A DNA stretch of 64,000 nt from Bacteroidales bacterium (lineage in GTDB: Bacteria; Bacteroidota; Bacteroidia; Bacteroidales; UBA3663): assembly GCA_017618715.1 (NCBI GenBank), contig JAFZTS010000054.1:37298-101297 (forward strand), given 5' to 3'. Below the pieces are notes generated by a model that had not been told where the DNA came from, ran no database searches, and saw nothing but the letters and a program-made list of their open reading frames with translations. This document shows positions 33,586-41,356 of the stretch, one piece after another; the stretch's first letter is position 1; each line of letters begins with the position of its first letter. The position numbers and the translations under genes were made by a program.

Positions 33586-34218
33586 TTATTTGACGATAAT
33601 CTTGCGTGCTGATTTGCTGTCCTTGACGATGTAAACGCCGCGTTTGAGTTGCAGGCGTTCGATGGCATCGGCATTCAGCATGACGGGGCGACCGCTGAGG
33701 TCATAGACGTCGGCGCGGCTCGAAGCATTGGAGATGTTCTCGATGCTCGAAGGCTCGCCGTTCAGGAATTCGATGTAGATGGAAAGCTCTTCGCCCCCAA
33801 CGTTCACGTCGAGTTTGGCAAGCAGGTGTCCCTCCTTGCGAATTGTGTAGGCATCGAATTGTGTTTGGATCTTGCTTCCCGAGAAGGTTTTGTCAAGCTC
33901 GGTGACACTGTTCATCGGGGAACATGCGCCACCCATGCACCATTGCAGGGACTTCGCACGGAAAGTGTGCTCGAGGATCGCCAGGTGTGCCGTACCGCTT
34001 ATTGTACTGCCGTCCTTGCTCACGAGCATCAGTCCCGTTTCGGGAGCCTCGGCTGGATTGGTCTCACATGACAGATCTCCGAAAAGGTCTTCTGCGGCTT
34101 CGATGGAGACGGCGCCATTCTCAAGGGGCTTGCCTTGATACTGGAACTCGAAATTCTGTGCGAAGACTGCCAGAGGTGTGGCAAGAATCATGAATAAGGT
34201 GATAAAGAATTGCTTCAT
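33586..34218 (-). CDS. Small secreted protein with T9SS CTD
   Basis: Signal peptide, QWCMGGAC motif, VYDLSGR...LKRGVYIVK...KIIVK. Confidence 0.75.
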   Translation of the reverse strand: MKQFFITLFMILATPLAVFAQNFEFQYQGKPLENGAVSIEAAEDLFGDLSCETNPAEAPETGLMLVSKDGSTISGTAHLAILEHTFRAKSLQWCMGGACSPMNSVTELDKTFSGSKIQTQFDAYTIRKEGHLLAKLDVNVGGEELSIYIEFLNGEPSSIENISNASSRADVYDLSGRPVMLNADAIERLQLKRGVYIVKDSKSARKIIVK

Positions 34219-34302
34219 AGGCGAATGAATTATGGGTTGTTATTTTGTTAGTCTAAATGTGTCGCTTCTATTATAACAACAAATGAATTCATTGATATTT
34301 TG

Positions 34303-34450
34303 GTGAAAATGGCCTCGTCTCTCGCTCCAATAGCGGAGACTTGGCCGGATGGATTTTATGCCCGAAGGGCAATTTTATGCAGGTATTGGACCTGCTCATT
34401 TTCCGGCAGCCTGGCTCGGCTATTGATGCCAGAGCCGCTGCCATTTTCAC
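34303..34450 (-). other. Structured dyad element, short copy, in the leader of the 34218 operon
   Basis: GTGAAAATGGC...GCCATTTTCAC terminal inverted repeat, 4 internal hairpins; homologous to 37313-37592; TATATTTG on minus strand at 34512-34519. Confidence 0.8.
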
Positions 34451-34758
34451 TCTTCTTTCAAAGTTTTTGGGTCATGTTTTATCGTTTTCGTTTCTATTGA
34501 AATATACGCTGCAAATATACGAAAAATGTTTATGAAATCGGCCTGATTATTGAATTATTGTTAAAACATTCCCCCCCATCGCCGCAATAATGTAACCTTT
34601 TGCTTTACATAGTTGTCAAAATGTTTGCAAAGTATTTGAGGCAATATTGTAAAAAAATGCTGAATTTCTACGAATTAATGATGAAAAAAACGCACAAATA
34701 TTGGATTATTCAAAAAAATGATATATCTTTGCTGCGAGAAAACCAATAAATCAACAAT

Positions 34759-37155: not shown

Positions 37156-37312
37156 AGATAGAGTTTTTTCACGTCGAAAACCGCCTTTTTTGACCATTTG
37201 CTGCATTTTTTTCCAAAAGAATTTGGAATTAATCCGATTTTGGCATATATTTGCAGTGCAATTTCGACAAAACTCGAAACACATAACCGATAATAATACT
37301 TCGTAACTCAAG

Positions 37313-37592
37313 GTGAAAATGGCAGACAACCTCGGCCCAATGGCCTGGTTGTTTCTGCCGGAAAATGAGCAGGTCCAATACCTGCAAAAAATTGCTGCGC
37401 AGAAAATCCATCCGGCTCCAAACAATTCAGGGTGTAGTCCCCAAAAAACTTGACCGTGTAGTCCCTAAAACAGCTTGACCGGAACCCGCATTATTTTCTG
37501 CACGAAGTGCAATTTTCTGCTGCCATTGAGGCAGCACATTTTCCGGATTTAGAGACGGGCTATTGAAGCCCACGTCTCAAATCCATTTTCAC
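37313..37592 (+). other. Structured dyad element, full copy, in the leader of the LRR gene
   Basis: GTGAAAATGG...CCATTTTCAC terminal inverted repeat, nested stems and side hairpins; TATATTTG at 37246-37253. Confidence 0.85.
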
Positions 37593-37652
37593 AAGGATAT
37601 CAAAAAAATAAACCGCCAAAACTACAAACCTAAAAATAAAAACCAAATTATT

Positions 37653-38495
37653 ATGAAAAACTTTACATGTTCAATCGTGAAAGCCGCAGGCATCGCAATG
37701 GCCTGCTGGTTCCTCCCCTCTCTGGGCTTGGCCTCCGTCGAGGTCAATGGAGTGTATTATGATCTGGATGAGGCTGACCAGACTGCCGTCGTGGTTGCCA
37801 ATCCCGACAAATATGTCGGCACTGTGAACATCCCCGGCGACATCACCGTCGATGGCAAGACCTATCTCGTTACCGCCATCGCCGACTGTGCCTTCATCGA
37901 CAACTACGACCTCGAACAGGTCTATATGGAGTCCTCCAATCTGACTAAAATCGGCTTCAGCGCCTTCGAGCGTTGCTACTCGCTGAACAGCGTCACACTA
38001 CCCGAGGGCTTGAAATTCTTCAACTACGAAGCCTTCAAGGACTGCCGCAGCCTGGAGCGTGTCCAGCTGCCCAGCACGCTGGAGCACATCGGCGGCCGCT
38101 CGTTCATGAATTGCGTCAGCCTGACAAAGATCAATGTCCCCGAGTCAGCCGCTTATCTCGGCAACAAGTGGTTGTATGACTGCCCCTTGATCGTCCTCGT
38201 AGCCGATAGCCAGGAACCTCTGAAACTCAAGGAAGACCCCTTCGAGGGACTCGACAAGGATGCCTGCATCCTCAGCGTACCCGAGGGCTGCAAGGAAGCC
38301 TATCAGGCAGCAAAAGTCTGGAAAGACTTCCTGATCTTCGAGAACTATGACGAGGGTGGCACCACCGCCATCGAAAGCATCAGCGACCAGAGCCCCGCTT
38401 CCCGTCAGATCTTCGACCTCCAGGGCCGTCGCCTGAACAATGCTTCCCGCCACTCGATCATCATCGAGAACGGACGGAAGCGCATTGAGTGGTAG
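37653..38495 (+). CDS. BspA-type LRR protein with T9SS CTD
   Basis: Start MKNFTCS; VEVNGVYY.L, IPGDITVDGKTY.VTAI, LPEGL..F...AFKDC, IFDLQGRRL. Confidence 0.85.
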   Translation: MKNFTCSIVKAAGIAMACWFLPSLGLASVEVNGVYYDLDEADQTAVVVANPDKYVGTVNIPGDITVDGKTYLVTAIADCAFIDNYDLEQVYMESSNLTKIGFSAFERCYSLNSVTLPEGLKFFNYEAFKDCRSLERVQLPSTLEHIGGRSFMNCVSLTKINVPESAAYLGNKWLYDCPLIVLVADSQEPLKLKEDPFEGLDKDACILSVPEGCKEAYQAAKVWKDFLIFENYDEGGTTAIESISDQSPASRQIFDLQGRRLNNASRHSIIIENGRKRIEW

Positions 38496-38521
38496 GAATA
38501 TATAAAGATTCGAGAATAAAC

Positions 38522-38551
38522 AAAGGCCCGCACCAATTGGTGCGGGCCTTT
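38522..38551. terminator. Bidirectional terminator (perfect 30-bp palindrome)
   Basis: aaaggcccgcaccaattggtgcgggccttt between convergent genes. Confidence 0.85.
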
Positions 38552-39645: not shown

Positions 39646-41016
39646 TTACTTGATCAGCACCTTGCGGCCGTTGTGGATGTAGAGGCCTTTGGTCGAGGGT
39701 CTGGAGGAGAGACGGCGGCCATCGAGGGTGAACCATGAGTTGAGGGATGGGGTGTTGTCGGTGTGGTCGATGGTGGGGATGGCAATGGATGCTTTGGCAA
39801 TGTAGTCGGACTCGAGGTATGAGATCTTGCTTATGATATTCAAGACGAAGTTCATGGCTGCTTCGACGTGGAGGCCTTGAGTGGTATAGGTTTCGAGCCT
39901 GTCGTCCCCGATGCCGCACTCGTCGCGCAGGAAGTCGCGCATGTGCTCCATGTTGAAGTATGGCACAATCTCGTCGTTGCGGGAATGATAGAGGAAGAAG
40001 CGGGTGTCGGGATTGGGCGTCCATCCGGAACAGAGGGAGTTGTTGTAGAGCGTCTGGAAATAGGAATCCATGGCGGGGTTGGTACGGGAGAGGTTATCGG
40101 TGCGCAACATCCTACTGACCAGAATGCCTGTGGAGTGATCGCCTCCGATGTAAGCGAAGATGGAGTCGTTGATTTCGTCGGCAGAGAGTGCCTTGCTGTC
40201 GTTCCATTCGACGAGCTTGGTGTCGAGGGGTGCCTGGAAGATGTCGCTATAGCTGATGTCGAGGTTTGCTCCCTCGATCTGACCTTCGACGATGAGGGAA
40301 ATGGCACAAGGATAGGGATAGGTGGCACCGGGAATGAGCAGTGTGTCGGTCATGGCGTTGAGGTCGTAGGGACCGTCGCCACAAAGGGTGTAGTCGATGC
40401 GGGAGATGACTTCGGGATCGACTTCATGGGTGTCGAAATAGCGCTGAACGGCCATTGAGGAGAATCCGCCCTGTGAATAGCCGAACTGTGCAAAGAGGTC
40501 GCCCACGGAGTAGTCCATCTGCTTGAGCAGACGGCGAGCGGCACCCACGGCGTCGATGTGGTTGACGGCGGTGGCGTCGGCAATGAGGTAGGCCTGGGGC
40601 TTGTCGTCGGTGACTCCGAAGCCGTAGCTGTCGGGGCTGACGATGATGAAGTCGGGGCCGAGGGTTGCGAATGGGCCTTCGATCTGAAGGTTATCGGTGA
40701 CGGTGGGCGCTTCGTTTCGTTTGGTGATGGTGTAGTGGTTGTTGAGCACGAGGCCGCAGGCGTTGAATTGCTTGTCGCCGATTTCGACCATCTTTGTGCG
40801 CTCGAAGATGCCCTGGGGGAAGATGAGCGCGGAGGAGAGCGTGACGGGAGTGACACCGTCGGGGGCCACGCTCTCGTAGGTGTAGTTGACGCGATAGTAG
40901 GGCATCTGTCCTAACAGGGTGAACGTCATCTGCGTGGTGTCGGTGATGACTTCTTCGGCCGAAAGGCTCAGGGTGCACGCCATGAGGAGTGCGGAGAGGT
41001 AGATTTTTGGGTTCAT
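39646..41016 (-). CDS. Secreted lipase-like alpha/beta hydrolase with T9SS CTD
   Basis: Start MNPKIYL; PDSYGFG, GYSQGG, CGDGPYDL, HSRNDEIVP; WFTLDGRRL CTD; paralog of 26300-27949. Confidence 0.78.
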   Translation of the reverse strand: MNPKIYLSALLMACTLSLSAEEVITDTTQMTFTLLGQMPYYRVNYTYESVAPDGVTPVTLSSALIFPQGIFERTKMVEIGDKQFNACGLVLNNHYTITKRNEAPTVTDNLQIEGPFATLGPDFIIVSPDSYGFGVTDDKPQAYLIADATAVNHIDAVGAARRLLKQMDYSVGDLFAQFGYSQGGFSSMAVQRYFDTHEVDPEVISRIDYTLCGDGPYDLNAMTDTLLIPGATYPYPCAISLIVEGQIEGANLDISYSDIFQAPLDTKLVEWNDSKALSADEINDSIFAYIGGDHSTGILVSRMLRTDNLSRTNPAMDSYFQTLYNNSLCSGWTPNPDTRFFLYHSRNDEIVPYFNMEHMRDFLRDECGIGDDRLETYTTQGLHVEAAMNFVLNIISKISYLESDYIAKASIAIPTIDHTDNTPSLNSWFTLDGRRLSSRPSTKGLYIHNGRKVLIK

Positions 41017-41036
41017 GACATCCTTGTTTTGGGGGG

Positions 41037-41138
41037 CGCTGCGCTCAAAATCCAACAAAATAAATATTAAAATCTTACAATGGCTTCGTCCTTCTTGATG
41101 GATTTTTGATAATATTTAGAGAGATTTTGAGCGAAGCG
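41037..41138. other. About 100-nt imperfect hairpin in the 5' leader of the 41016 gene
   Basis: cgctgcgctcaaaatc...taaatatt / aatattta...gattttgagcgaagcg; TATATTTG on minus strand at 41177-41184. Confidence 0.6.
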
Positions 41139-41356
41139 ACCACTCATGATATTTCGGCTTGTCGAAATGGACGGGGCAAATATAACTATTTTTTTTGAAA
41201 ATAGGTGCAATTAGGTTATAAAAATGCGAGAATTTTGCTTGAATGAGCTATTTTGAACACGAATTAGCATGTAATTTACATGAATAAAAGACTGAAATTT
41301 GGATTGGAATGAAAAACAACGTACCTTTGCGGCCAAGAACACCTTTACATTTATAT

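Follow-up and report, generated by a model that had tools for sequence, protein, structure and literature searches.

A palindromic dyad behind a Bacteroidales promoter as the probable payload of an ORF-less IS110-type cassette

We analysed a 64,000-nt stretch of DNA (the window) from the draft genome of a Bacteroidales bacterium (G000; 3.01 Mb, 87 contigs, 78% complete), and in particular a short dyad palindrome at 34303-34450 on the minus strand (copy B). Coordinates without a contig name are positions in the window. Copy B belongs to a family of dyad palindromes, here named F1, and a long member of the family (copy A) lies at 37313-37592 on the plus strand. In our reading, which we regard as well supported, copy B is the non-coding payload of a mobile IS110-type cassette of ~246 bp (34264-34509, minus strand) that contains no open reading frame (ORF). 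The evidence consists of the repeat family, the constant frame around its members, the homology of the ends of this frame to those of an insertion sequence (IS), empty sites in sister species, and the covariation of guide and target in the corresponding IS clade. The cassette has a left end (LE, the leader) and a right end (RE, the tail), and it lies with its surroundings as follows.

34512..34519, minus strand: -7 promoter box TATATTTG of the resident promoter (from sequence; consensus TAnnTTTG), followed by CA at 34511-34510
34451..34509, minus strand: LE of the cassette, a diverged IS110-type end with a 5' hairpin (nhmmer E 0.0013)
34509-34508, minus strand: presumed core GC, the start of the LE
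34303..34450, minus strand: F1 dyad in its short form, copy B (from sequence and fold), with the next eight lines as its parts
34450-34441, minus strand: 5' half of the closing stem, GTGAAAATGG
34440-34407, minus strand: hairpin 1, type c
34406-34398, minus strand: linker CCGGAAAAT
34397-34378, minus strand: hairpin 2, loop CCAAT at 34389-34385
34370-34360, minus strand: hairpin 3, GCCCTTCGGGC
34348-34345, minus strand: CCGG junction
34344-34313, minus strand: distal hairpin 1, type d
34312-34303, minus strand: 3' half of the closing stem, CCATTTTCAC
34264..34302, minus strand: RE tail of the cassette, ending ..TTGTTATAATAGAAGC, which is the RE box with one extra A (from sequence)
34219..34263, minus strand: resident 5' leader that runs to the downstream gene's ATG at 34218 (from sequence)
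33586..34218, minus strand: first downstream gene, encoding a 210-aa secreted protein with a sub-threshold sorting tail of the type IX secretion system (T9SS)

We searched G000 with copy A as the query and obtained 54 matches, which clustered into 23 loci, or 24 after one tandem pair was split. Several of these copies lay at contig ends, and the copies within G000 were 85-97% alike. The arm of F1 runs in the order GTGAAAATGG, hairpin 1, CCGGAAAAT, hairpin 2, AAAATTGC, hairpin 3 and AAAAT, and the second arm is its mirror image. The 39 distinct arms extracted from G000 and its relatives contained 27 distinct hairpin-1 and 18 distinct hairpin-2 sequences; hairpin 2 occurred in six stem types, every one fully Watson-Crick paired and closed by a YCAAT loop. 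To judge from these combinations, the hairpins behave as interchangeable modules. A query of F1 with its flanks matched 6 of 24 other species of the genus, one of them (G012) in the promoter part only, and none of 16 genomes from other families of the order.

On the minus strand (34450-34303), copy B has GTGAAAATGG at its start and CCATTTTCAC at its end, and the same terminal sequences close copy A. An earlier note on this DNA had described copy B as an internally deleted relative of copy A, and its structural description was confirmed. The blocks GTGAAAATGGCAG, a 32-nt CTGCCGG..ACCTGCA and AAAATCCATCCGGC were found in both copies. Hairpin 1 of copy B has another stem than that of copy A and the loop ATCAATA, its hairpin 3 is GCCCTTCGGGC, and its last hairpin is GTCTC..GAGAC as opposed to GAGAC..GTCTC in copy A, with an ATTG loop in the middle. 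The full-length copy at C18:19667-19912 contains two CCGG sites, its proximal arm ending ..CCATCCGG and its distal arm starting with CCGG directly followed by CCAAGTCTCC; copy B is the remnant expected when a copy of this type loses the DNA between both CCGG sites, consistent with the deletion that the note had proposed. Its suggestion that the left arm plus the terminal stem forms the minimal unit was not upheld, as some half copies retain the proximal arm alone and others the distal arm alone. The folding energy of copy B was -71.7 kcal/mol (z -6.5; 0 of 200 shuffled sequences folded equally well) and the fold of copy A had a z of -7.2. The predicted fold of copy B is far better than chance.

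The surroundings of F1 are constant from locus to locus. On the promoter side, a TAnnTTTG box is followed by CA and then by a conserved leader of ~55 nt, which starts GC(G/A)TCCATTTCGA-N4-TCGAAAAC, and on the gene side F1 is followed by a tail that ends ..TTGTTATATAGAAGC. TAnnTTTG is the -7 promoter consensus of Bacteroidetes (PMC7366714). An nhmmer profile of box plus leader, preferred over a loose motif scan with 353 mostly chance hits, was run on G000 and gave 39 leaders. The TAnnTTTG box was in register in 28 of them, a count that is partly circular because the profile itself contained the box. TTTG at the -33 distance, in upstream DNA that is not repeated, was present in 11 of the 28 boxed leaders, compared with 3.5% of random 12-nt windows. 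F1 follows 17 of the 39 leaders, and F2, an unrelated dyad family, follows 13 by pattern; a few leaders have both and some have neither. The note had predicted that further copies of the dyad would be non-random in place and orientation, and this was the case: the conserved leader reads into F1 at 17 of the 24 F1 loci, and the arm with the GCAGGT-CCAAT-ACCTGC hairpin is directed toward the leader in all 13 loci scorable for both. The RE box lies on the far side of F1 in all six scorable loci.

Full-length IS110-family elements carry the same ends. In the sister species G015, a 452-aa ORF was found inside an F1, with matches to PF01548 (3.8e-22), PF02371 (2.3e-7) and NF033542, "IS110 family RNA-guided transposase" (200.8 bits; cut-off 140). 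This ORF (1432-2790 of locus L106, G015:C63:12952-16386) is part of a full-length IS at about 925-2937 of the locus, which lies within an F1 cassette, in its distal arm, and the host F1 itself lies behind a promoter and leader. The left end of the IS is homologous to the leader, with the hairpin TTTCGA/TCGAAA present there as a covarying TTGCCA/TGGCAA, and the last bases of its right end are ..TTGTTATATAGAAGC, with the same ..TTATATAGAAGC box as in the cassettes. We fetched 80 related IS loci from public genomes. A leader-only model matched the IS start in L117 (E 8e-12) and L143 (1e-4) and more weakly in L142 and L148, and the leader was 88% identical to the L117 start over 51 nt by blastn. 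IS copies and cassettes both finish with the RE box ..TTATATAGAAG(C), which closes six other F1 cassettes besides copy B. On the strength of these sequence comparisons, an autonomous element of the IS110 family has an LE and an RE homologous to the cassette ends.

The position of the full-length copies is also consistent among them. All seven inspected IS copies of the clade with 61-67% identity (L138 and L141, both from an isolate record of Prevotella lacticifex, and L140, L142, L143, L144 and L148) stand directly after TAnnTTTG(C/T)AGC, with the -7 box target TAnnTTTGCAGC, and a gene starts within tens of bases past their right end. Two more contigs (L117 and L139) start at TTTGCAGC. The insertion of the cassettes is likewise site- and orientation-specific, with no inverted repeats at the extreme ends and no long duplication of the target, as in the IS110 family, and with differing boundaries at one locus (C87, below). 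The cassette contains no ORF and hence no DEDD recombinase (PF01548 plus PF02371); it is therefore classed as an IS110 derivative and not as an IS.

We found a bridge-RNA-like guide in the left ends of this IS clade. A variable stretch is located ~130 nt before the start codon, directly ahead of a conserved ..TGGnnCC. When the last 9 nt of this stretch were compared with the left flank of the copy that carries them, 17 of 28 copies showed one mismatch or none, and five of these agreed exactly. Among cross pairs of guides and flanks, 49 of 718 agreed with at most one mismatch and none exactly. The script was run on 37 loci, of which nine without the anchor were left out (L109, L118, L122, L127, L132, L133, L135, L136 and L137), and several misses among the 28 scored copies were cut contigs or a wrongly picked anchor. 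Examples of guide and flank pairs are TTACTGAGT, TCGGACAGT and CTCGAAGT, and the pair in L142 is TTTGTAGC as opposed to TTTGCAGC in its relatives. The G015 copy has the guide AATGCGTAGG and its insertion site within F1 is ..TTTTGCGTAG (compared by eye); this match indicates that the palindrome serves as a landing site for a re-targeted IS. Furthermore, a donor-like ..TATAGAAG.. in the left end matches the RE box, and in L128 and L135 it becomes TATGGAAG jointly with the box. RNAalifold of 16 left ends gave 21 pairs, 16 of which showed compensatory changes; the variable guide falls in stem-loop one and the donor-like stretch in stem-loop two. Rfam gave nothing relevant in four IS loci. Full-length relatives have a two-loop RNA matching target and donor, whereas in the cassette the bridge RNA is absent and F1 takes its place. 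Target-like and donor-like words within F1 were limited to look-alikes with one or two mismatches, such as TATTGAAGC in a loop.

Other relatives from public records of metagenome-assembled genomes (MAGs), namely L110-L116, L120, L121, L125, L126, L129 and L130, carry other guide words that match non-promoter flanks, for example ..TTACTGAGT and ..TCGGACAGT directly at the insertion point, and constitute a natural series of re-programmed guides.

Five G000 loci were set against their counterparts in two sister species, G015 and G024; the GH31 protein of these species shares 94% identity with that of G000. All five were polymorphic: two were clean empty sites, two showed cassette turnover, and C87, like the block that contains copy A, showed a larger rearrangement. 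At the amylase promoter, G015 and G024 are empty, with TATCTTTGCA directly followed by CC.. and running into the gene's own leader. G000 is 341 nt longer, and its insert starts with GCGTTCATTTCGA and ends ..TATATAGAAGC. At the C61 promoter, G015 is empty, with ..TTTTTGCAGCG joined to TATTATTAACC and TATTATT.. after the boundary, and G000 is 391 nt longer from that same point; the extra DNA includes a second, truncated leader after the tail box. Both clean empty sites have a common left boundary directly behind the -7 box, after TTTGCA(GC). The GH28 promoter is filled in all three species, by leader and F1 in G000, by leader and F2 in G015, and by leader, another F2 and an F1 remnant in G024. 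The promoter of copy B is also filled in all three, by differing F1 versions: G000 has types d..c, G015 has a canonical LE and a 127-nt F1 with one central hairpin, a chimera in which two stem types meet in the loop, and G024 has a different proximal arm.

These observations suggest the following mechanism. Elements of this type integrate by means of a DEDD recombinase under bridge-RNA guidance, as relatives show. The target guide of the clade, ..TTTGCAGC, corresponds to the tail of the Bacteroidetes -7 box plus CAGC, and the element therefore lands in a single orientation between the resident promoter and its gene, with GC as the probable core dinucleotide. A cassette with neither recombinase nor bridge RNA would be moved in trans by a full-length relative, carrying F1 as a passenger, and the dyad would thereby come to be transcribed within the 5' untranslated region (UTR). 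Guide-directed integration behind ..TTTGCA-GC would explain why the dyad lies just behind the promoter with the same arm facing it.

The earlier note had placed both dyads between a promoter and a T9SS operon. The first half of this description holds, as a TAnnTTTG box precedes and an ORF follows each of copies A and B, which face outward on either side of the GH31 gene. The T9SS label is weakly backed: among five scanned neighbouring proteins, only the 210-aa protein gave a Por_Secre_tail match, and this was below threshold (TIGR04183, 21.7 bits; cut-off 23), and the C-terminal tail motifs of the other four were read by eye. A link with T9SS is not general either, because the neighbours of F1 are functionally unrelated across loci; they include GH115, pectate lyase, GH28, alpha-amylase, a U32 peptidase, acyl carrier protein/ketoacyl synthase, aldose epimerase, DUF3836 and LRR_5 proteins. 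Further F1 sites lie after rpoC and between convergent NUDIX and DUF697 genes. We infer that F1 is not a regulator of T9SS genes, and that it is a set of perfect hairpins prone to internal deletion and module exchange.

The site after rpoC (C12:36954-37131 of G000, minus strand) consists of a promoter, a leader and a half F1 just downstream of rpoC, aimed at a convergent gene from its 3' side. As there is no ORF behind this half F1, the copy would yield a stand-alone small transcript.

Several results weigh against a mobile cassette behind the promoter, or limit how far this reading extends. No recombinase of this IS110 clade was detected in G000 by tblastn (in a genome that is 78% complete), and among 39 genomes of the genus it occurred in G015 only; this scarcity says little because MAGs often lose such repeats. 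F1 was found in none of the 79 other IS-bearing loci. The two copies in the window are themselves imperfect, since the LE of copy B is diverged (nhmmer E 0.0013) and an additional base is present in its RE box, and copy A has no RE box and an LE unmatched by nhmmer. The TAnnTTTG box was not in register in 11 of the 39 leaders. The C87 indel has other boundaries: in G024, 327 nt are missing, which span the leader, F1 and the promoter together with 108 nt of DNA upstream of the promoter. Similarly, the block 37156-38514 (promoter, copy A and LRR_5 gene) is absent in G015, where the GH31 stop is followed by ~12 nt and then by the terminator found at 38522-38551 of the window, and in G024 it is replaced by ~310 nt of other repeat-rich DNA. 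These boundaries indicate that simple insertion at a resident promoter is not the route of every copy. Copy B has no empty-site comparator because the 210-aa protein of its operon was not found beside GH31 in 19 loci of other species. Finally, the contigs of the public runs X3, X7, X18 and X20 contained no circle junction, empty site or decisive joint; these runs were examined as Logan contigs only, which break inside F1 and in which depth piles up on the repeat. The joints seen there link modules common to copies A and B, in mixed metagenomes.

F1 could instead be a separate palindromic mobile repeat, similar to MITEs (miniature inverted-repeat transposable elements) or repetitive extragenic palindromic (REP) sequences, with its own machinery and nested in IS110-type frames via ..TGAAAAT. 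We consider this unlikely. The 10-bp inverted termini of F1 would fit such an element, as would the frames without F1 at C14:12086 and C51:24157, which keep one (G/A)TGAAAAT, the few F1 pieces without a detectable LE (C10, C12:24446 and C12:88044), and the absence of F1 from other IS loci. However, no target-site duplication was seen, no Y1 transposase was found in G000, G015, G010, G013 or G023, and no orthologous site was found at which F1 alone is present or absent in an otherwise unchanged frame. Furthermore, the polarity of F1 relative to LE and RE is fixed in 13 of 13 loci, which independent insertion of a near-palindrome would not yield.

Two known classes of small mobile repeats were rejected directly. 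A classical MITE would share the 10-bp inverted termini, yet by-eye inspection of 24 loci gave no consistent flanking duplication. REP or REPIN sequences with REP-associated tyrosine transposases (RAYTs), or IS200-IS605 elements, were rejected because PF01797 had no match in G000 and its distribution showed no phyletic link with F1: it is also absent in G015, G010, G013 and G023, and it does occur in G024, as well as in 13 genomes that gave no F1 match or were not searched for F1. An integron-like element and an invertible switch were both given up when the IS110 ends were recognised.

It is somewhat more doubtful still that F1 acts in cis as an RNA element within the 5' UTR, under selection at the transcript level, whether as a stabiliser, a processing site, a protein platform or a source of CCAAU/AUUGG loop-loop contacts. 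F1 does lie always on the transcribed side of the promoter, its predicted fold is very stable, its YCAAT loops stay while the stems vary (six stem types in hairpin 2), and hairpin 3 on the sense strand is often CUUCGG. F1 modules also occur in two contig sets from RNA libraries (X18 record 3; X20 records 9 and 13). These metatranscriptome contigs matched at 34342-34407 and 37509-37567, one of them free of mismatches over 61 nt; they may stem from other copies or organisms, and carry-over of DNA is possible. Against such an element stand the lack of a common function among the neighbouring genes, the orthologous promoters of the sister species that are empty or carry another payload (F2), and the high similarity of the G000 copies noted above, which points to recent spread. 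No covariance model of a described cis-regulatory RNA or riboswitch matched at gathering score in the 64-kb window, and nothing in Rfam matched the dyad up to E 10. A terminator scan gave only weak hairpin-plus-ATTTT sites, those on the sense strand being confined to the distal arm of copy A.

The earlier note had taken the orientation bias as a pointer to a function at the RNA level. The bias is explained by the orientation-specific insertion of the whole cassette (LE, F1 and RE) behind the -7 box, so that the proposed integration mechanism already accounts for it. The stems are nearly pure Watson-Crick on both strands, with no excess of G.U pairs on the sense strand (0 versus 0 in hairpin 2, and 3 versus 6 in hairpin 1, by per-sequence folds). 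This gave no sign that one strand is selected, weak evidence in view of the few G.U pairs and the relatedness of the copies. The folded 5' UTR may still influence the mRNA downstream of it.

It is very improbable that the dyad works as a switch at the DNA level, with inversion or shuffling of the segment giving phase variation of surface proteins: inverted termini, module combinations that vary between copies and species, and the ability of bridge recombinases to invert DNA (10.1101/2025.05.14.653916) would suit such a switch, but the promoter lies outside the inverted repeats, the dyad keeps one polarity toward the promoter in 13 of 13 loci, and the joints between "opposite strands" are links between modules common to copies A and B in mixed metagenome contigs. 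The invertible promoter switches of Bacteroidales were rejected as a model on the same position of the promoter and the same single polarity.

The mobile cassette can be carried one step further, to a broader proposal that we put forward tentatively and hold to be possible rather than probable. An RNA-guided IS110-type system might use the -7 box of the phylum as its landing site and thereby make a "cassette slot" between promoter and gene, in which F1 would be more than junk. ORF-less F1 and F2 cassettes might then be inserted, stacked in tandem and exchanged between species of a rumen Bacteroidales lineage. The perfect-hairpin module of F1, on this doubtful extension, could let the cassette occupy a 5' UTR without killing the gene, and could act as a landing pad for a re-targeted IS.

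Comparison with known systems places the cassette close to IS110-family elements. The bridge-RNA architecture of IS110 comprises a long left end, target and donor loops, a short core and short subterminal inverted repeats (PMC11208160). The IS621/IS110 group described there and the clade studied here share the DEDD recombinase (PF01548 plus PF02371), a long LE with a two-loop RNA, site- and orientation-specific insertion at a short core, and the short subterminal inverted repeats. The targets of IS621 are REP elements, and in its circular form the RE-LE junction restores the promoter (PMC11208160). In the clade studied here, by contrast, the RE end TATATAGA looks like a spoiled copy of TAnnTTTG, and the element would be placed behind the -7 box of the host instead. 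Unlike IS621, the copy B cassette has no recombinase and no bridge RNA.

The closest precedent for the cassette, by analogy, is MITEPpu9 of Pseudomonas putida KT2440, an sRNA (small RNA) gene, ssr9, between ISPpu9-like ends, which has been proposed to hitch-hike on the IS110-family element ISPpu9 (PMC12288879). Both MITEPpu9, as presented there, and the F1 cassette are small non-autonomous units with IS110-like left and right ends and a non-coding payload. MITEPpu9 occurs both beside the IS and alone and is thought to be moved in trans (PMC12288879), which resembles the proposal made here. They differ in payload and target, which for MITEPpu9 are given as the ssr9 sRNA and REP sequences, and here are a multi-hairpin palindrome (F1 or F2) and the Bacteroidetes -7 box. 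In addition, the cassettes here far outnumber full-length copies, unlike MITEPpu9, with 39 leaders in G000 and no recombinase gene.

Two further families of palindromic repeats are more distant. The REP sequences and bacterial interspersed mosaic elements (BIMEs) of enterobacteria, with their RAYT transposases, are dispersed intergenic palindromic mosaics, mostly 3' of genes, and are frequent targets of IS110-family elements. F1 is likewise a dispersed intergenic palindromic mosaic, but there is no Y1 transposase in G000, and F1 has fixed polarity behind promoters and IS110-type ends. The Correia elements of Neisseria are short inverted-repeat elements in 5' regions, which are co-transcribed, form long hairpins, are flanked by TA duplications and can create promoters. 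Here, unlike in Correia elements, the promoter is resident and the insertion point lies at a fixed distance behind it. We found no paper on this dyad and none on IS110-family elements that target the Bacteroidetes -7 box, although supplementary tables of bridge-RNA targets may list such elements.

The attractive but wrong idea of a riboregulator of secretion genes thus gives way to a testable mechanism, and the natural target of one clade of bridge-RNA recombinases is shown to be the core promoter element of Bacteroidota. Active cassettes would alter the 5' UTRs of genes by the dozen, given the 39 leaders in a draft of 3 Mb, with differences between sister species at the same promoters. If true, rumen Prevotella-like bacteria would gain variation in expression at little cost, and the cassettes would often be the reason why contigs in their MAGs break. 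The table of guides and targets in natural copies may also serve as raw material on natural guide re-programming.

The remaining features of this kind in the window are copy A with its surroundings and a third cassette.

37246..37253, plus strand: -7 box TATATTTG of the promoter ahead of copy A (from sequence)
37256..37312, plus strand: diverged LE-like leader of copy A (by-eye similarity; below the reach of nhmmer at E 0.01)
37313..37592, plus strand: full-length F1 dyad, copy A, with a proximal arm of type a and a distal arm of type b (from sequence and fold)
37593..37652, plus strand: second-type tail (AAGGATATC..AAATAAACC) that lacks an RE box; the ATG of an LRR_5 protein comes next, at 37653 (from sequence)
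41017..41184, minus strand: third cassette of the window, with F2 as payload (-7 box at 41184-41177, LE at 41174-41142, F2 dyad at 41141-41034)

The F2 cassette lies directly ahead of the ATG at 41016 of a 456-aa secreted protein, and the termini of its dyad are GGTCGCTTCGCTCAAAAT.. and ..ATTTTGAGCGCAGCGCC. Between the leucine-rich repeat (LRR) gene behind copy A and a convergent gene for a 259-aa protein, a 13-bp bidirectional terminator-like hairpin with a CAAT or ATTG loop, depending on the strand, was observed at 38522-38551, and it is conserved in G015.

Tandem cassettes were observed at three places in G000, C25:18300-18610 (minus strand), C45:25811-26210 (plus strand) and C62:37459-37824 (plus strand). 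They contain a chromosomal junction of RE and LE, in which ..ATAGAAGCG is directly followed by TCCATTTCGA.., as expected in a circular form; such junctions lie at C25:18399 and C62:37595. Furthermore, four short leaders in G000 (C14:46694, C76:56698 and C53:47661 on the plus strand and C44:5211 on the minus strand) consist of a -7 box, a 5' hairpin similar to TTTCGA-N4-TCGAAA and an A-rich stretch before the start codon. They have neither a dyad nor an RE box, and may be worn left ends or native leaders that were mimicked.

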